Source: Gammaproteobacteria bacterium (GTDB lineage Bacteria > Pseudomonadota > Gammaproteobacteria > UBA4575). From it: a stretch of DNA of 64,000 nt. Below, piece after piece: positions 12,360 to 23,143 of this stretch. Each line of letters starts with the position of its first letter. The first letter of the stretch is position 1. The DNA is taken from assembly GCA_965222615.1 (NCBI GenBank), contig CBDCUI010000009.1:64001-128000 (forward strand), given 5' to 3'. The translations under genes and the position numbers were made by a program. The notes beneath the pieces are model-generated. The model worked only from the letters and a program-made list of their open reading frames with translations. It had not been told where the DNA came from and made no database searches.

Positions 12360-12668
12360 ATGAAAGTAGAAGCATTTAGACAACCTGACCTAGGTCATTC
12401 AGTTGAGATGCTAGACATGATCAAGCAGATGTTTAGCGAAGGCATACCGCAATCTCGGATAGCAGAGCGTCTTAATAAGAAAGGCTATAGGGGCGCTCTT
12501 GGTGGTAAATGGAATTCCAGTAGTGTCGGTAGATTGCTTAGGCAGTTGAAGCTATTGCCTACACACAGTAGTTATCTTGAAGTGACCAAACAGAATGCTG
12601 AGCTGAAGGCGAGGGTTATAGAGTTAGAGGATACGTTAGAACATATAATGAAGGAGCATTACAGTTAA
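12360..12668 (+). CDS. Small DNA-binding protein: serine-recombinase 'Recombinase'-domain-like HTH plus coiled coil
   Basis: SRIAERLNKKGYRGALGGKWNSSSVGRLL pattern; AAGGAG RBS; C-terminal heptads. Confidence 0.6.
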   Translation: MKVEAFRQPDLGHSVEMLDMIKQMFSEGIPQSRIAERLNKKGYRGALGGKWNSSSVGRLLRQLKLLPTHSSYLEVTKQNAELKARVIELEDTLEHIMKEHYS

Positions 12669-13628: not shown

Positions 13629-13964
13629 ATGGAAACAGATATAGATATTAAAGATGTAAGTCTAATGGACGTGTCTACATGGCATCACGATGTAGACGAT
13701 ACGGAAGCCCTTACACGGAAGCATATCCCAAACCTAGACATTGCAAAGTGGCTGTTACAGATCAGGGCCGATGCTCCGAATAAAGCTCCAGTAGTAATTA
13801 AAGGCGAAGAACAAGAGCCCACACCACATATTGATGTTACTCGAAGTAATCAACTGCTGAAGATAATTGCTTGCAACTTATTACAACGATTCTGTGTGCT
13901 TACATTTAATTCAAACATCGAGAAGGTCATAGATGAATATGAACGTCGTACCGTTATCTACTGA
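13629..13964 (+). CDS. Hypothetical protein
   Basis: AAGGAAG RBS; tightly packed operon. Confidence 0.55.
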   Translation: METDIDIKDVSLMDVSTWHHDVDDTEALTRKHIPNLDIAKWLLQIRADAPNKAPVVIKGEEQEPTPHIDVTRSNQLLKIIACNLLQRFCVLTFNSNIEKVIDEYERRTVIY

Positions 13965-14220
13965 TCTTACATTACCAAGTGGTCCCGCAAGTTATGAAGA
14001 TGTATGCACAATACATCGGCAAGTTACCTCTATTCTGTCTGATGACTTAAACAAGATAGAAGAGGGCACTTATGATGGTGATGAGAAAGCGAAAGCAGAG
14101 ATCATCAAGGTTGCTATTAAGTTCTTAAAGGACAATAAGATCTTAGTTGATGAGGATAGCTCACCGAGAAAGTATGCAACTCAACTAGAAAGTTTAGAGT
14201 TGCCGACGTTTAGAGACTAG
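13933..14220 (+). CDS. Autographivirus-like terminase small subunit (DNA maturase A-like)
   Basis: AS.E....IH..V...L and AIKFLKDN.I...LPTF pattern recalled from TerS of T7-supergroup phages. Confidence 0.55.
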   Translation: MNMNVVPLSTDLTLPSGPASYEDVCTIHRQVTSILSDDLNKIEEGTYDGDEKAKAEIIKVAIKFLKDNKILVDEDSSPRKYATQLESLELPTFRD

Positions 14221-14256: not shown

Positions 14257-16176
14257 ATGGAACAATTAATCACAATCGACTCGAATGAGTTTGTCGAAAG
14301 GATGCAAGAACATTGGGAGACTACATTAGGCAATGTAAGCAGTGATGCATTACGCCTTGTATGGAAGCAACTATCTTCAACATTCAATGGTTATATTGGT
14401 GGACATGCAGATAAAGAATGGTATGTATTGCAACCCCCCACTGGATCAGGCAAAACTCAAGGCACTATTGTTTATGCATCGATGCTGTCTGAACTGGAAA
14501 TGACAGATCACCCTGGAATGTTAATTGTTACACGTCGGATATTCGATGCAGATTTAATAGCAGATCAGATAAATGAACTTTCAGGTCGAGAGGTAGCCGT
14601 TAGCTTTCATAGTGATAAGCATAAAGAGCTATCAATTCACGAGCTGTCCAAATGGCCTGTATTAGTCATTACCCATAGAGCCTATGAATTAGCACTGGAT
14701 CAAATCTATAAAGATCAAAGCAATAAAGATACATGGGATTACTTCAATGAGTGGATACCTAAGTTTGATTCAAATGGCAGAAAGTTAATTGTTATTGATG
14801 AGTCACTAGACATTGTTGAGCATAATCAAGTCACAGCTTCAGAGCTTAACCACACCATAGGTTGTCTTGACACAAAGCTATTAATTAAATATCCAAGTGA
14901 AATCGAAGCAATTAAGGTTGCAAGAGACCATCTCCTTAAAATAGAAGCAATGAACTTTGCAAGCACTACGACCACCATTGTCAAAAGCGTGCTCGATGAT
15001 ATTACTAAGGCACCTAATTTCTCAGAACTAATAAAAGACCTCAAGCAAGTGCGCTTCGATTTTCAAGTTCATAAGAATGACACCAATGAGAATAACAAAA
15101 TGAGGTCATTACATGAGAAGAGATTGAATGCACTGCAACGTATCTATAACTCATGGATGTACTATGCGAGGCTAGAGAATAAAGAAACATTAAACACAGC
15201 AAGATTGCTTGTACCAAGTAATGTTAGAGGCGCGGTTGTATTAGATGCAACAGCGAAGTCTAACTTGATCTATACAGTATTCGATAAAGCAAAGGTACTC
15301 ACACCACCGGAAGGTTCACGAAACTATCAGAATGTGAATGCACATTTCTTAAAGGGCTTCAACGGTGGCAAGGTATCGATGCAAAAGAATGCTAAGAAGC
15401 TTGCTAAGCAATTAATGGCGGACTTAAACACACGACTAGCGGGTCGTAATGTTCTTATCATTACTCATAAAAGTGTTAGACCAAGCCTTGAGCTATATGA
15501 AGGTAACACTAGTTTCAAAATGAACATTGCTCATTGGTTTAACGCCGCGGGTAGTAATGAATGGAAAGACTGTGATGCTGTAGTGTTATGGGGATTACCA
15601 TTTCTACCTGATTATGTGGCGACTAATACGTTCATGGCATGTCAAGGTGTACAAGAAGATGAGTGGCTGACAGATGTAACTAAGAGAGAGTTCAAAGGAA
15701 TAAAAGACATCAAGCAAGCACTTAAGGTTGGAGCTAGCGTAGTAGAGATCGTCCAAGGTCTGAATAGGATCGCCTCACGCAAAGTTATAGACACTGAAGG
15801 TAACTGTCCTGAAGTCGATTTCTATATTCCATTACCCAATAACACAATTGGAGAAGCAATCTATAAGGGGATTGTTGAGGAGATGCCTAGGATGACCTTA
15901 GGTGAACCTTGGAAACTAGACACCGATGCTAAGCCAGTTAAGAAAGGTAACGGTGAAATAGCTCTAGTGTCTTATCTCACTAATATGATGAGAGGGAAGG
16001 TTAGTGCTAGTCAGGTTAAGAGCGAGATAGGAATATCTCCCGCAACATTTAAAAGACTAGTAGCTAAGTTAAAAGATACAACTAGTTCCTTATATCAATC
16101 ACTAATAGATATAGGAGTTAAGTATCAAGTTAGTGGTAAGGGACAAAGACAAGTCGCTCATTTTGTTAAGTCTTAA
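14257..16176 (+). CDS. SF2 helicase-like replication protein with C-terminal HTH
   Basis: PTGSGKT (I), LIVT (Ia), VITH (Ib), IVIDES (II), LDATA (III), QGLNR (VI); SASQVKSEIGISPATFKR HTH. Confidence 0.75.
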   Translation: MEQLITIDSNEFVERMQEHWETTLGNVSSDALRLVWKQLSSTFNGYIGGHADKEWYVLQPPTGSGKTQGTIVYASMLSELEMTDHPGMLIVTRRIFDADLIADQINELSGREVAVSFHSDKHKELSIHELSKWPVLVITHRAYELALDQIYKDQSNKDTWDYFNEWIPKFDSNGRKLIVIDESLDIVEHNQVTASELNHTIGCLDTKLLIKYPSEIEAIKVARDHLLKIEAMNFASTTTTIVKSVLDDITKAPNFSELIKDLKQVRFDFQVHKNDTNENNKMRSLHEKRLNALQRIYNSWMYYARLENKETLNTARLLVPSNVRGAVVLDATAKSNLIYTVFDKAKVLTPPEGSRNYQNVNAHFLKGFNGGKVSMQKNAKKLAKQLMADLNTRLAGRNVLIITHKSVRPSLELYEGNTSFKMNIAHWFNAAGSNEWKDCDAVVLWGLPFLPDYVATNTFMACQGVQEDEWLTDVTKREFKGIKDIKQALKVGASVVEIVQGLNRIASRKVIDTEGNCPEVDFYIPLPNNTIGEAIYKGIVEEMPRMTLGEPWKLDTDAKPVKKGNGEIALVSYLTNMMRGKVSASQVKSEIGISPATFKRLVAKLKDTTSSLYQSLIDIGVKYQVSGKGQRQVAHFVKS

Positions 16177-16179
16177 AGT

Positions 16180-16228
16180 TATGAGGCTCACTTCCCTTTA
16201 ATAAACCTATAGGGATTCGATCCTCATA
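16180..16228. other. Imperfect inverted repeat directly after the helicase gene (candidate origin or terminator)
   Basis: TATGAGG..TCCCT..AATAAACC..AGGGA..CCTCATA. Confidence 0.45.
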
Positions 16229-16822
16229 AATATGAACGGTCAGTTATTAAAACTATCTGATACTTCGTAACCAACCGATCATAGACATCACTAGGTTTTA
16301 GGGGTCGTTATCATCCCCGTTATTTCCTCCCTGGTGGTGTCTATCCACCTAGGTCCAGCTAAGGTCATCCTTAGGTCTCTCCATACATCTTCCATACCCT
16401 ATGGATGGATCTTATTGGTCCTATAACTATCTAGCTTGCCTTATGGGCTAGAGAATGGAATAGCCGGTATAGGTCTAAACTTCGCCTATGCTGGCTAGTT
16501 CCTAGCTTATAATGACCGCTAACGACCCAAAGCGGACATTCAAATCATGACAAACTAGATAGGCTGGATCTTATTCCGCTTGAACTGCCGATTTCTCACA
16601 TTTAAACATCGCTATCTATCTAATCCTGCTGTATGGTGAATCTAAGATTAGATATTCCTATCCCGATTTTCTTCCAGAGTTTCATTTCTTTGCCAGTTGT
16701 CGGCAATCATCTCTAATTACTGATTCCTTTGACACAGTGTCATTGGAGCACTAACACATGTGCAAATAGATTGAATGGGTATGCGCACAACAAGGCTCGA
16801 TCATCGAGCAAGGATATAAACA

Positions 16823-17089
16823 ATGAAACTATATGTAGGTAATTTACCTTGGAGCGTAACTGATGTGGATTTAAAAGAACTTTTTAGTGAGGTTGGCGAA
16901 GTAACAAGCGCCACCATTATCACTGATAGAGATTCTGGTCGATCCCGTGGATTCGGTTTCGTAGAAATGGCGAAAGAGGCTGGCCAACAAGCGATTAAGA
17001 AATTCAGCGAGCACGTAATTGATAACAGAACGCTGCGTGTCAATGAAGCAAATGAAAAACAACCCCGTCAAGCTGGCGGCCATTCTTAA
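16823..17089 (+). CDS. RRM-domain RNA-binding protein
   Basis: RNP2 LYVGNL, RNP1 RGFGFVEM and LRVNEA. Confidence 0.95.
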   Translation: MKLYVGNLPWSVTDVDLKELFSEVGEVTSATIITDRDSGRSRGFGFVEMAKEAGQQAIKKFSEHVIDNRTLRVNEANEKQPRQAGGHS

Positions 17090-17169
17090 AAGGTAGTTGG
17101 GCTAATGATCTTCGGGCGACATAACAATGCCGCTCGAGATCCTTTGACTACACAAAAGGAGCTACTTCT

Positions 17170-17313
17170 ATGATCGAAGAAGAAGAAAAGAAGTTGATGG
17201 ATCAATACGGGGTCATTTCTCAGCAAAAAACGGTGTATCACTATAATGGGTACAACTATGACAATCTTGAAGATGCGATTCGGTATGCCAAGATTGACAC
17301 TCAGCGAAAGTGA
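17170..17313 (+). CDS. Small hypothetical protein (47 aa), not in the ORF track
   Basis: AAAGGAG RBS; MIEEEEKKLMDQYGVISQQKTVYHYNGYNYDNLEDAIRYAKIDTQRK. Confidence 0.65.
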   Translation: MIEEEEKKLMDQYGVISQQKTVYHYNGYNYDNLEDAIRYAKIDTQRK

Positions 17314-17352
17314 ATTTGGCCCGTTCCCACAAAATTCTATGAGGAAGCCAAC

Positions 17353-17745
17353 GTGAATACTATTAAAGATATCAAGATAAAAGGCTTAGACCCGAATCGA
17401 AGGCCCAGTCTAAAGAATAAAAACTACGTTGATATAATTTTCGAGCTGACTCAAAAAGCACCCAAAGACTGGTGCGCTGACTTCAATTTATTATTTTCAA
17501 AAGATAAGCACAACGCAAAGATAAATCCTGATGAGGGACGATATGTTGAGACATGGGTGAGAAATATTAACGACATTCCAAAAGAACTTGAGCTGATTAA
17601 ACAACTCATCGTAATCTGTAATAACAACTATATTGAACAAAAGCATCAAGAAGAACTAGCTTGGCAAAAATCTGAAAACAGCAAATCCAATAGCCGCAGC
17701 GATGAATTAGAAGGTATCCTGGCAAGCCTAAATTTCAATTCATAG
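17353..17745 (+). CDS. Hypothetical protein
   Basis: GAGGAAG RBS before GTG; 130 aa. Confidence 0.65.
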   Translation: MNTIKDIKIKGLDPNRRPSLKNKNYVDIIFELTQKAPKDWCADFNLLFSKDKHNAKINPDEGRYVETWVRNINDIPKELELIKQLIVICNNNYIEQKHQEELAWQKSENSKSNSRSDELEGILASLNFNS

Positions 17746-17776
17746 CTCTTGTCTGAAATTGGCCGAAAGGAATCAT

Positions 17777-18076
17777 ATGAATAAGGACTGCAAAGTCGTA
17801 CTTATTTCGAATTCTGGGTATAAAAAAGAACACAACGATCTATTGCAAGAGCTAATAGAAAATGAAATTGAACTTTTCTGTGCCGTGGGTATTGAGTGCC
17901 AGGAGTGGGAAGAAGCAATGGACTTGTTGTGTGCTGAGTTAGATGCAAATGACATTAAACCAAACGCTTTTTGCAACACGACATCTCATCCTAATGAAAG
18001 TGTTGAGGATGTGATTAAATTTGCCGAAAGTTGGAGCCAGAAAGGGGCAACAGAAGTAAAAATAATCGAGATTTAA
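17777..18076 (+). CDS. Hypothetical protein (cassette-like gene)
   Basis: ATG at 17777 uses AAAGGA from within the degenerate repeat as RBS; ends 12 nt before the next repeat. Confidence 0.7.
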   Translation: MNKDCKVVLISNSGYKKEHNDLLQELIENEIELFCAVGIECQEWEEAMDLLCAELDANDIKPNAFCNTTSHPNESVEDVIKFAESWSQKGATEVKIIEI

Positions 18077-18219
18077 CTAATGTAGTAGATGACCGCTATT
18101 GGCCGAAAGCGGACATAAACTAAGCCAGTAAGGCAGAAATTAGGTTGGATTCCATAAATAACATGTTCAAAATGACTGCTAACGACCCAAAGCGGACATA
18201 GGAAATAATAATATTTGAT

Positions 18220-18654
18220 ATGAAAAAGATACCAACTTTAAAAGCCGCGATGACTCCTTTCCCATATTCTGTACAGCTTGAAACGACGCTTACTGCTGTA
18301 AGGAATTTGATGCAAACGCACAATATTCATCATATTCCAGTTATGAATAGTGGGAAAATTGTAGGTGTAGTAACCGCAAGAGATGTTGAGGCAAGGCAAA
18401 AGATGATGGATAGCGATGATAATGAACCATCACTTGAGGTATTGCATGTTCCTATGTCTAAGGCTTATATCGTCGATATCAATGAACCGCTTGAAAATAT
18501 ATTGTTAACAATGGCTAGTAAACGAATTGGGGCTACTGTCGTAACTAAACATGGAAAATTAGTAGGAGTCTTTACATATATTGATGCTTGTCGTTATTTT
18601 AGTGAATACATAAAAGCAAAGTTTCCTAAAAATAATGATAATGATGCGGCATAA
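18220..18654 (+). CDS. CBS-domain pair protein
   Basis: MQTHNIHHIPVM..GKIVGVVTARD and GKLVGVFTYID. Confidence 0.9.
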   Translation: MKKIPTLKAAMTPFPYSVQLETTLTAVRNLMQTHNIHHIPVMNSGKIVGVVTARDVEARQKMMDSDDNEPSLEVLHVPMSKAYIVDINEPLENILLTMASKRIGATVVTKHGKLVGVFTYIDACRYFSEYIKAKFPKNNDNDAA

Positions 18655-18742
18655 GCATCAACTTTTGAATGACTGCTTTTGGCCGAAAGCGGACATAAAG
18701 AGCTAAGCCACATTAAAGCAACCTAGCTCTATCCCTGTAGCA

Positions 18743-19012
18743 CTAATAATTAAAAGACTCTGCTGTTAGTGTAACCTTTGTACCTTCTAACGCTTTCTTA
18801 AACGGTCCAAACTCTGGAGTGTCCCCAAAGATCGGAAAGCTACCGTCGCATCCAGTTAAGTAAATAAGTTGTTTGTCGTCTATGTCTCGGCCTTCACCCA
18901 CTATCAGTAATGCGCCGTCCTTGTCTGTATACATAGTACCTTCAACAAGATCTGCAAAACTTAATTCTTCTTCGCGATGTTCAGGTGTTTCCACTTCTAT
19001 ATCTACAATCAT
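18743..19012 (-). CDS. Hypothetical acidic protein
   Basis: GGAG RBS; 89 aa; only minus-strand gene of the element. Confidence 0.55.
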   Translation of the reverse strand: MIVDIEVETPEHREEELSFADLVEGTMYTDKDGALLIVGEGRDIDDKQLIYLTGCDGSFPIFGDTPEFGPFKKALEGTKVTLTAESFNY

Positions 19013-21756: not shown

Positions 21757-22086
21757 ATTAGTGATGAAACTTTATCCCTTAGCGAAGCTGCACATCTATT
21801 AAAGATGTCACCTGAAGCGTTACGGCGCAAAGCTAAGGCCTGTGATATTCCTGGCGCAAAACCTGCCAAGGAATGGGTATTTATTAAGGAAGATTTACTC
21901 GCTTACATCCGCTCATGTTATGCTAAACCTGTAACTGTGTGGAGTGAGCGATCAACTGAAAAGGAGATCAATCAATGCCATACAAACGAAAAGACAATGG
22001 AGTCTATTACTCCAATTTTGAATCCAGAAGTGGAGAGCGGGTACGAAAGAGCCTTAGGACGCGTGATAGAAATGAGGCCATCATAA
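21757..22086 (+). CDS. Excisionase-like HTH_17 protein, apparent ATT start
   Basis: ETLSLSEAAHLLKMSPEALRRKAK..IPGAKPAKEWVF; helix 1 lies upstream of the ATG at 21805; AAGGAG-N6-ATT; in-frame TAA at 21751. Confidence 0.7.
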   Translation: MSDETLSLSEAAHLLKMSPEALRRKAKACDIPGAKPAKEWVFIKEDLLAYIRSCYAKPVTVWSERSTEKEINQCHTNEKTMESITPILNPEVESGYERALGRVIEMRPS

Positions 22087-23036
22087 AAGAGGCTGAATTG
22101 ATTGCGGCAGATAAGGGTGAAGTCGTACAGATTAACAATAACCGGAAAACTTGGCGTGATGCTGTTTACCGATACTGGAATGAAGTGGAAGGTAAAGCTA
22201 GCGCTGATTGTATTCAAATACATTTAAGGTTCTTGGATACATTCTTAGGAGATAAGTATCTCGATGAGATCAATGATGAACTTATCGAAGATATTATTGC
22301 TGCTAAAAGTAGTGAGAAAAACCGTAAAGGTGAGAAGCTATCCGGTGCTACAGTTAATCGATTAACGGCGACGTTAAAGTCGGTGTTCAATAGTGCAAAG
22401 AAATACAGATGGATCGACAACGTTCCGTATGTAAGAAAGTTAGAAGAGTCAGAGGGTAGGAGTAGGTATCTCACACCATCTGAATCTAAACGATTACTTG
22501 ATCATTGTGCTGAACACTTAAAACCGATAGTGACATTTGCTTTGCATACAGGCTTGAGAAAGCAGAATGTATTAAGGCTTAGATGGGAGAATGTAGACCT
22601 CGATCAAGGTAAGTGCTGGGTGCTTAGCTCAGAGCATAAAAACCGAAAGGCGAGGGGTGTTACTCTCAATAGTGTTGCTTTAGGGGTGCTACGAGAATTA
22701 GCTATATATAAGGTGTCGCCCTATGTATTTAACTATAGGGGGCGGCCTATTGGAGATGTGAAGACGGGACTTAAGCGAGCCTGTGAACGGGCTGGCTTAA
22801 AGGACATATCCTTCCACACATTTCGACATACTTATGCTTCTTTACTAGCACAGCAAAACGTTTCGACCCTAGTTTTAAAGGAGCTAGGTGGATGGAAGTC
22901 AATGCAAATGGCTCAAAGATACGCTCATCTTAATGATGACGGACTGCGAGAATACCAAGAATTGCTTGTAGGTTTGTCACAGTACTGTGACAAAAATCCA
23001 CCGCCCAAGTTAAGGCTAGTAAGTGGAAAATCGTAA
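21975..23036 (+). CDS. int: Tyrosine recombinase / phage integrase
   Basis: TGLRK (R), HKN (K), HTFRH, LGGW and RYAH (Y); adjacent to attR. Confidence 0.95.
   Translation: MPYKRKDNGVYYSNFESRSGERVRKSLRTRDRNEAIIKEAELIAADKGEVVQINNNRKTWRDAVYRYWNEVEGKASADCIQIHLRFLDTFLGDKYLDEINDELIEDIIAAKSSEKNRKGEKLSGATVNRLTATLKSVFNSAKKYRWIDNVPYVRKLEESEGRSRYLTPSESKRLLDHCAEHLKPIVTFALHTGLRKQNVLRLRWENVDLDQGKCWVLSSEHKNRKARGVTLNSVALGVLRELAIYKVSPYVFNYRGRPIGDVKTGLKRACERAGLKDISFHTFRHTYASLLAQQNVSTLVLKELGGWKSMQMAQRYAHLNDDGLREYQELLVGLSQYCDKNPPPKLRLVSGKS
22973..22994. promoter_or_regulatory. Perfect 22-bp palindrome (candidate integrase arm-site pair)
   Basis: TTTGTCACAGTACTGTGACAAA; the TGTCACA/TGTGACA half-site also occurs near attL (7586, 7644). 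Confidence 0.6.
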
Positions 23037-23067: not shown

Positions 23068-23143
23068 GCGGGAATAGCTCAGTTGGTAGAGCGCAACCTT
23101 GCCAAGGTTGAGGTCGCGAGTTCGAACCTCGTTTCCCGCTCCA
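23068..23143 (+). tRNA. tRNA-Gly (GCC), intact, includes attR
   Basis: 76-nt cloverleaf GCGGGAA...TTGCCAA...GTTCGAA...TTCCCGCTCCA. Confidence 0.98.

Follow-up and report, generated by a model that had tools for sequence, protein, structure and literature searches.

Small gene units bounded by 28-nucleotide hairpins vary among related gammaproteobacterial genomes and form integron-like arrays

We analysed a 64,000-nucleotide (nt) stretch of DNA (the window) from an uncultured gammaproteobacterium of the GTDB lineage UBA4575 (GenBank assembly GCA_965222615.1, contig CBDCUI010000009.1, positions 64,001 to 128,000), in which an array of small genes, all in one direction, is delimited by a 28-nt near-palindromic repeat, hereafter the hairpin. 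Comparison with related genomes shows that the units between hairpins are discrete, differ among sister genomes, recur in unrelated contexts and have been copied from hairpin edge to hairpin edge. We favour, with a probability of about one half, a reading in which these units are non-autonomous, transposon-like passenger cassettes with strand-specific ends that are moved in trans by an enzyme. Genomes are designated G (the window's own genome being G000), contigs C and loci L.

Scanning the 64-kb window for ATGACYGCT-N10-AGCGGACAT returned four copies, all on the plus strand with 0 mismatches, and 100 shuffles of the window returned 0 matches. Two of these copies are type A and two are type B, the latter with loops ATTGGCCGAA and TTTGGCCGAA (18089-18116 and 18669-18696) and both followed downstream by CTAAGCCA (18120-18127 and 18703-18710); the four-copy motif, the two loop types and the trailer shared by the B copies, all described in an earlier note made from the letters alone (the original prediction), are thus borne out. 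As single-stranded DNA, the four intact copies are predicted to fold at -2.6 to -5.8 kcal/mol, the A hairpin at 16512-16539 reaching -5.8 kcal/mol (z -4.2). In metagenome contigs, this same hairpin occurs as a discrete repeat with unrelated flanks and loose ends at 16510/11 and 16541-44. A fifth, decayed copy of type B (17749-17776), for which no fold is predicted any more, abuts the ATG at 17777 and supplies a Shine-Dalgarno-like GGA, in line with the earlier view that a degenerate repeat provides the ribosome-binding site of the next gene. In G001, a genome of the same genus, an intact B stands at the orthologous spot after the same 130-aa (amino acid) gene. We read the window array as a pair of units, the first of which probably arose by fusion of two earlier ones (Table 1).

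Related genomes differ in the presence of whole arrays and units at conserved sites. The 16-kb array of G022 is absent at the same nuoN-rimP site in G007, G019, G014 and G001, where the gap measures 1.3-1.8 kb and is free of hairpins. Downstream of ychF, G007 carries seven cassettes and G019 one A-two genes-B unit of opposite direction; none is present in G022, G014 or G006. In G000 itself, a 4.5-kb insert (C9:829877-834362) is made up of A', three genes (a TPR protein and a GNAT among them), B-spacer-A, an MBL-fold gene and B', and lies between two conserved, convergent genes; in G001 these genes overlap, with no hairpin there. At another locus, G000 and G001 carry different hairpin-bearing content between the same two conserved flanks. 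Gene content between the repeats thus differs among relatives, the comparison that the original prediction had suggested.

Units of the window array are also found elsewhere, and their homology stops at the hairpins. The CBS unit recurs in G006, flanked on each side by A-type copies and 82% identical from hairpin to hairpin, and in G019 (84%). The DUF7684 gene is present in G006 at 88% DNA identity; an A-type hairpin follows it there, at the place taken by B in the window. The RRM block (homology 16600-17729/17744) occupies six places including the window, with differing neighbours, and is flanked by hairpins in four of them. Between the two genomes of one genus, most core DNA is 74-77% identical (one 923-bp stretch reaches 90%), so that, in this small sample, cassette identities across genera exceed those of the core and the cassettes look exchanged between genera.

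The strongest single evidence that the hairpin-bounded unit is what moves comes from a Sphingomonas isolate (G042), in which two copies of a 435-bp unit, one at 837 kb and the other at 1670 kb, are 98.4% identical and have unrelated flanks. The unit comprises an A-type hairpin, a minus-strand open reading frame (ORF) of ~115 aa and a second hairpin, which has loop TTCCACCCAA and lies on the same strand as the gene. Homology between the two copies runs from the outer edge of one hairpin to 6 nt beyond the other, and no clear target duplication was seen in this pair. Because it carries two whole ends, the Sphingomonas unit is unlike an integron cassette, and boundaries placed at the outer edges of two complete hairpins fit a transposon-like unit better than a single-site integron cassette.

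The two ends show a preferred polarity. Among 58 one-way units lying between consecutive hairpins at 19 loci of relatives, the ends read 5' to 3' were A(sense)...B in 32, B...B in 14, B...A(sense) in 4, B...A(antisense) in 3, A...A in 3 and A(antisense)...B in 2. The earlier proposal that A precedes and B follows a gene therefore describes the commonest pattern and not a rule. Where A forms the 5' end it is sense in 35 cases and antisense in 2, and both ends are on the same strand in 32+3 of the 58 units. At 113 loci drawn from a wide range of taxa, the orientation of A agrees with that of the upstream gene at 62:18 and with that of the downstream gene at 68:24, the rest being undetermined. 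Hairpins lie 12-40 nt past the stop codon of a co-oriented gene, with A ~20 nt ahead of the next start.

Where units adjoin, type B, a spacer of 45-55 nt and type A make up a junction of ~110 nt between small one-way genes. The genome of the window (3.1 Mb, 9 contigs) holds 7 hairpin sites at <=2 mismatches, and a profile built from four junctions retrieved 9 nearly full copies and several partial ones; overall, copies in this genome number ~15-25. With so few near-exact sites there is no flood of the kind seen with REPs (repetitive extragenic palindromes) in G000, and on these counts we rejected a genome-wide REP for that genome. The spacer is itself conserved: GGTTGG starts exactly 29 nt upstream of A in 47 of the 199 distinct A-type copies pooled from all loci, and the consensus TTGGAW-17 nt-YAAWAT, whose last two letters are the first two of the hairpin, can also be read as containing an AATCAA box like that of integration host factor (IHF) sites. 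In the window the spacer can be read as a weak sigma-70-like TTGGAT-17 nt-CAAAAT, and in relatives as the IHF-like AATCAA motif; a scan with the promoter consensus did not call it. The spacer may be a promoter, an IHF site or an extension of the end. A 111-nt junction is predicted to fold as a single long imperfect B:A hairpin (-15.6 kcal/mol, z -3.1), and Rfam returned 0 families at gathering score on five loci and 0 at E up to 5 on 16100-18900. Ahead of some A hairpins, B is replaced by a motif of ~55 nt (GCGAATATGAG, a short stem-loop, ...GATTAA), which may be the end of an insertion sequence (IS) or of another module; it was observed at L043 (the left end of the G022 array), L138, L102, L112 and L118/L119.

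Junction DNA is present in 15 of the 41 related genomes searched, namely the window's own, 13 of 24 others of the same family and 1 of 16 from other families. Some relatives hold up to 130-179 first-look candidates per genome (179 in G006), many of them solo hairpins, and in G019 a junction 89% identical to that of the window stands between unrelated genes. In the three arrays that we read (Table 1), nearly all ORFs (70-316 aa) share one direction and lie on the same strand as the repeat; they encode Cass2/GyrI-like, DinB, NYN, DUF1428, DUF1801, HSP20, GNAT, MBL and another RRM protein, families that are usual in integron cassettes. As the original prediction held, the repeats bound one-way accessory genes in these relatives too, and the hairpins keep to gene edges rather than being scattered without relation to gene boundaries. 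More widely, the motif has at least 124 loci in records of Nitrospina and of Gamma-, Alpha- and Deltaproteobacteria. When the class was sampled evenly, an A-type site was found in just 2 of 200 other families, which makes a housekeeping binding site unlikely and a mobile origin likely. Among cultured bacteria, Lysobacter dokdonensis carries 24 A-type sites, ~18 of them within one 24-kb island, and the Sphingomonas isolate carries 19. Two further pairs of records share DNA around the hairpin. In L085 and L163, from two genomes, a reverse-strand A-type hairpin lies ~200 nt upstream of an apparent tRNA- or tmRNA-like 3' end, and the 239 nt past the hairpin are 93% identical between the records. 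L062, from a metagenome-assembled genome (MAG) labelled 'Mycobacterium', and L113, from a Thiotrichales MAG, have a nearly identical AT-rich flank and hairpin; the Mycobacterium label is probably a binning error.

Table 1 Features of the window array and its surroundings, arrays in relatives and mobile elements at hairpins of G000. Positions refer to the window unless a genome or contig is given.
Feature	Position	Strand	Remarks
Type A hairpin	16512-16539	+	Loop AACGACCCAA; 5' end of unit 1 and left end of the array
Conserved untranslated leader (~280 nt) ahead of the RRM gene	16540..16822	+	Part of the RRM block
RRM_1 RNA-binding protein, 88 aa, cargo	16823..17089	+	Pfam PF00076, E 1.2e-19
47-aa ORF within the RRM block, cargo	17170..17313	+	Homologous ORFs of 46-52 aa in G001, G019 and G022
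130-aa ORF, last gene of the RRM block, cargo	17353..17745	+	59-82% identical in 5 other places
Decayed type B relic	17749-17776	+	19/28 identity to each B copy; former 3' end of the RRM unit
DUF7684 protein, cargo	17759..18076	+	Pfam PF24733, E 6.3e-10; likely start ATG 17777
Type B hairpin	18089-18116	+	3' end of unit 1; fold -5.8 kcal/mol
55-nt spacer of the composite junction	18117..18171	+	CTAAGCCA after B; GGTTGGA at 18143, 29 nt before A
Type A hairpin	18172-18199	+	Loop AACGACCCAA; 5' end of unit 2; fold -2.6 kcal/mol
CBS-pair protein, 144 aa, cargo	18220..18654	+	Pfam PF00571, E 1e-20
Type B hairpin	18669-18696, with tail 18669..18710	+	Trailing AAAGAGCTAAGCCA; right end of the array
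Tyrosine integrase of the island	21975..23036	+	Pfam Phage_integrase, E 1.2e-30; PHROG 1 integrase
tRNA-Gly(GCC), probable island attachment site	23068..23143	+	ARAGORN
Array in G022	C1:15067-31091		~16 kb, ~20 junctions; between rimP-nusA-infB and nuoN
Array in G001	C1:351436-356278		Between scpAB and a pseudouridine synthase gene
Array in G007	C1:232712-236087		Downstream of pth-ychF
IS1111-type copies in G000	C7:813.6, 788.9, 820.2 kb; C9:256.2, 259.6, 961.7 kb
IS110-type copies in G000	C7:816.8, 820.9 kb; C8:0.6, 2.5 kb; C9:253.8 kb
MITE copies in G000	C8:4381-4667; C9:266284, 675284, 787110, 926715, 1003013

The hairpins are themselves targets of three kinds of mobile element. An IS1111-type element, with a 344-aa DEDD transposase and 12-bp subterminal repeats ATGGCCTCCCTC/GAGGGAGGCCAT, sits within B at one fixed point in 4/4 copies examined. 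A group II intron had been considered as the occupant of B hairpins and was rejected, there being no Rfam match and the element being this IS. Similarly, an IS110-type element (347 aa) begins with TGTATGGACAC directly after ...ACCCAA of the A-type loop in 5/5 copies, and contigs C7 and C8 break off within these repeats. At the dyad centre of six further hairpins lies a ~265-bp miniature inverted-repeat transposable element (MITE) with IS30-like inverted ends, and full IS30-like genes (386/389 aa, HTH_38 + rve) adjoin hairpin halves. IS1111-family elements are described as homing into attC sites and REPs (PMC11187229), a behaviour that fits either kind of repeat.

We compared the enzymes of carriers, defined as 12 genomes with at least 9 junction matches, with those of 29 others (41 genomes in all). 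Y1_Tnp (PF01797) was found in 4/12 carriers and 13/29 others, IS110 DEDD transposases in 3/12 and 7/29, Y2_Tnp (PF04986) in 0/12 and 2/29, and Resolvase (PF00239) in 3/12 and 10/29. Neither isolate (Lysobacter, Sphingomonas) has a Y1_Tnp, the Y1 type associated with REPs (RAYT, REP-associated tyrosine transposase) is missing in 8/12 carriers, including G006 with the most copies, and the sole Y1 copy of G000 (C8:549505) has no hairpin match nearby. IntI (TIGR02249) exceeded the cut-off in 0/7 carriers tested, that is, in 0/5 family genomes with arrays and 0/2 isolates. A 218-aa tyrosine recombinase that is flanked by hairpins in Lysobacter was also considered and rejected; hairpins do not flank its close homologues in G020, and it is missing from most carriers. 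The search for a co-occurring recombinase that had been advised was thus carried out, and the families searched show none that accompanies the repeat. The idea that the element's own Int is the general partner is not supported, as arrays occupy many chromosomal sites with no integrase nearby.

The genome of the window does contain an integron. Its IntI (C9:397324-398262) scores 490 bits against a cut-off of 265, so that the earlier statement that there is no IntI is right for the window and wrong for the genome, where a bona fide IntI and a classical attC array lie ~315 kb away. This integron (locus L016, IntI and the ~12 kb upstream of it) has ~10 or more cassettes on the opposite strand with heterogeneous classical attC sites, which end in CTTGTTAGG and do not include the 28-nt repeat; the hairpins are therefore ruled out as attC of G000's own integron. 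Of the 46 junctions listed, most start with a left stem of the ATGWCC type, B being absent from three, and every one ends in ...GGACAT or something close to it; none of them (0/46) combines an initial AAC with a final GTT on either strand. The original prediction was right that the site is not attC, given the absence of RYYYAAC/GTTRRRY boxes and the complete hairpins at both ends of units.

Taken as mobile modules, the units would work as follows. The 28-nt near-palindromes would be the two ends of a small module: the 5' end would be a type A copy lying on the coding strand, and the 3' end either type B or another A-like copy. A module of this kind, with A followed by one to four passenger genes and then B, would land in a hairpin-free intergenic site, and head-to-tail landing of several modules would produce an integron-like array with B-spacer-A junctions of ~110 nt. 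The reaction would resemble transposition on the two ends and be catalysed in trans, probably by something that is no recognisable Y1 or Y2 transposase. Ends on the same strand, together with the lack of an obvious target duplication, recall single-strand elements of the IS200/IS605 kind.

Several observations weigh against this scheme. No mobilising enzyme was found, and IntI, Y1, Y2, IS110 and Resolvase show no co-occurrence with the repeat. None of the sequencing runs listed as carrying this DNA is of RNA, and contigs of four runs yielded no circle, excision joint or empty-site read, the joints that they do contain being explained by the repeat itself in short contigs. Only a single recent duplication was found. 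The conserved spacer lies outside the copied Sphingomonas unit and is also missing at array ends, and the model leaves its origin unexplained. ORF calling was mechanical, and the compared loci, being related, are not independent of one another. Finally, the stems show no compensatory covariation. All eight stem pairs are paired as expected for independent halves; for pair 4-25 the paired fraction is 0.50 observed vs 0.50 expected, and pair 6-23 of type B is C.A in 23 copies and C-G in 21, although the rows compared are related and make this weak evidence either way. The A-A mismatch at stem position 4, present in all four window copies, is not general: 173 A-type copies from many genomes include T-A in 84 and A.A in 65, as independent halves would give. 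With compensatory change absent, sequence variation lends no support to single-strand folding, and the earlier argument for such folding from wobble pairs falls away.

An alternative is that the hairpins are intergenic repeats like REPs or bacterial interspersed mosaic elements (BIMEs), selfish or tamed by the host, with hairpins and B-spacer-A doublets spreading alone, chiefly into accessory-gene islands, and cargo exchanged secondarily through homologous recombination between the 28-nt repeats. The doublet, with an IHF-like box between two palindromes, appears similar to the BIME-1/RIP (repetitive IHF-binding palindromic element) of E. coli, and the large candidate numbers with many solo copies, the 89% identical junction between unrelated genes in G019, the raised hairpin depth in two soil metagenomes (110-156 vs 8-10 in the flanks) and the insertion of IS1111-family and IS110-type elements into B and the A loop would all fit such repeats. 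We consider this unlikely, however, since units are inserted where relatives are hairpin-free, and recombination between existing repeats cannot put arrays or units at such sites. REPs are moreover species-specific whereas the hairpin motif is common to several classes, a RAYT-type Y1 is absent from most carriers and both isolates, and no case was found of a hairpin gained between two conserved neighbours.

The model of the original prediction, a site-specific cassette system in which the ~110-nt junction would act as an attC analogue, folded or duplex, and a tyrosine recombinase would form circles in trans by recombining like sites, appears quite improbable. Array architecture and cargo match those of integrons, the 111-nt junction folds as one B:A hairpin, XerC-/XerD-like genes are the only tyrosine recombinases common to five carriers examined, and the 28-nt site can be read as 11-6-11, like Xer sites. 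Yet arrays open with a complete A and close with a complete B, with no half or hybrid sites, the copied Sphingomonas unit consists of two whole hairpins and no spacer, the listed junctions have no complementary AAC/GTT boxes, the IntI array of G000 relies on a different, classical attC, and the Lysobacter 218-aa recombinase has no consistent partner relationship elsewhere. What stands of the proposed gene-capture and shuffling system is its bounded, variable, one-way cargo; an integron-like single-site mechanism and an Int of its own do not. We regard as very improbable a reading in which the elements punctuate expression and travel passively with genes, with B as a stem-loop that stabilises the 3' end, the spacer serving as promoter, and A acting as an operator or a 5' stem-loop. 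Such a role would account for hairpin orientation that tracks the genes, for the short distances to stop and start codons and for the promoter-like spacer at constant distance from A. It would leave unexplained the insertion of whole units and the homing of three IS kinds to the loops, and it is further disfavoured by stems that lack compensatory change, the absence of a T-run after hairpins (none scored terminator-like), a promoter match of 8/12 that the scan did not call and the lack of a matching Rfam family.

Returning to the reading as passenger cassettes moved in trans, the closest known systems each share part of its features. Integron arrays and CALINs (clusters of attC sites lacking integron integrases) are likewise made up of short accessory genes that are poor in promoters, run mostly in one direction and are each trailed by an imperfect palindrome, with overlapping cargo (Cass2, DinB, GNAT) and IS1111-family homing to the repeat. 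The hairpin units differ in having no RYYYAAC...GTTRRRY, a complete site at both ends and no IntI in seven carriers, and their basic site is 28 nt, whereas attC measures 57 nt or more; the likeness to integrons is architectural, not mechanistic. Palindrome-associated transposable elements (PATEs) of the IS200/IS605 group and REP/REPIN-RAYT systems (REPIN, REP doublet forming a hairpin) appear to share stem-loop ends in the same orientation, no clear target duplication, and solo copies as well as doublets between genes. In contrast to these, hairpin carriers are mostly without Y1, the stems do not covary, the motif spans classes, and the ends enclose ordinary passenger genes, not nothing or tnpB. 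In the pdif modules of Acinetobacter plasmids, genes are flanked by 28-bp XerC/XerD sites, and as with our units, two inverted arms in 28-bp sites bound gene modules that recur in new contexts and contain no recombinase. The hairpin sites are, however, chromosomal, occur in numerous taxa and are usually directly oriented instead of alternating, and their arms are not known to resemble dif arms. Mobile insertion cassettes (MICs), in which IS ends flank passenger genes and are moved in trans, similarly place passenger genes between transposon-like ends with no transposase gene inside, but no IS was found that could be the parent of the hairpin ends, each of which is itself palindromic, and units stack in tandem. 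Literature searches with exact motif strings and keywords gave no description of the element within the part of PubMed Central that they covered.

The window array lies in a genomic island. Core genes (plsX, fabH, a UDG, uvrC and pgsA) extend to 7372, and the island runs from there to tRNA-Gly. Between 7783 and 16176 it encodes a 1351-aa protein in which HTH_37, at the N terminus, is the sole domain; 102 aa of what was a large serine recombinase (12360-12668); a small-terminase-like ORF (13933-14220); and a 639-aa P-loop ATPase of no clear family. The island also holds small ORFs. From its position between core genes and tRNA-Gly, alongside an integrase, the array appears to be a passenger of an integrative tRNA-Gly island. 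Of the cargo, which the earlier note had read as RRM, CBS and hypothetical proteins, the RRM, DUF7684 and CBS domains are confirmed by Pfam, and the 130-aa ORF has no Pfam family. The RRM-47aa-130aa block has a 76% identical paralogue in the same genome (G000:C9:959393-960524) and copies in 4 other genomes.

Integrons, identified by their IntI and attC, are the standard example of how bacteria store and reshuffle individual genes. The hairpin arrays of uncultured Gammaproteobacteria and of cultured Lysobacter and Sphingomonas look like integron arrays and are stocked like them, with neither hallmark. We raise tentatively, as a rather doubtful proposal, that they represent a new way of packaging and moving genes, in which cassettes that cross phyla carry a strand-specific 28-nt stem-loop at each end, build integron-like arrays without an integron integrase and are moved by a new enzyme family or by host functions acting on palindromes. 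The hairpins are natural homing sites for IS1111/IS110-type elements, which are RNA-guided, and for IS30-type elements, and are thus useful for studies of target choice. If the units move as the comparisons suggest, tools for finding integrons miss a second pool of cassettes, which a further enzyme or host pathway would move.

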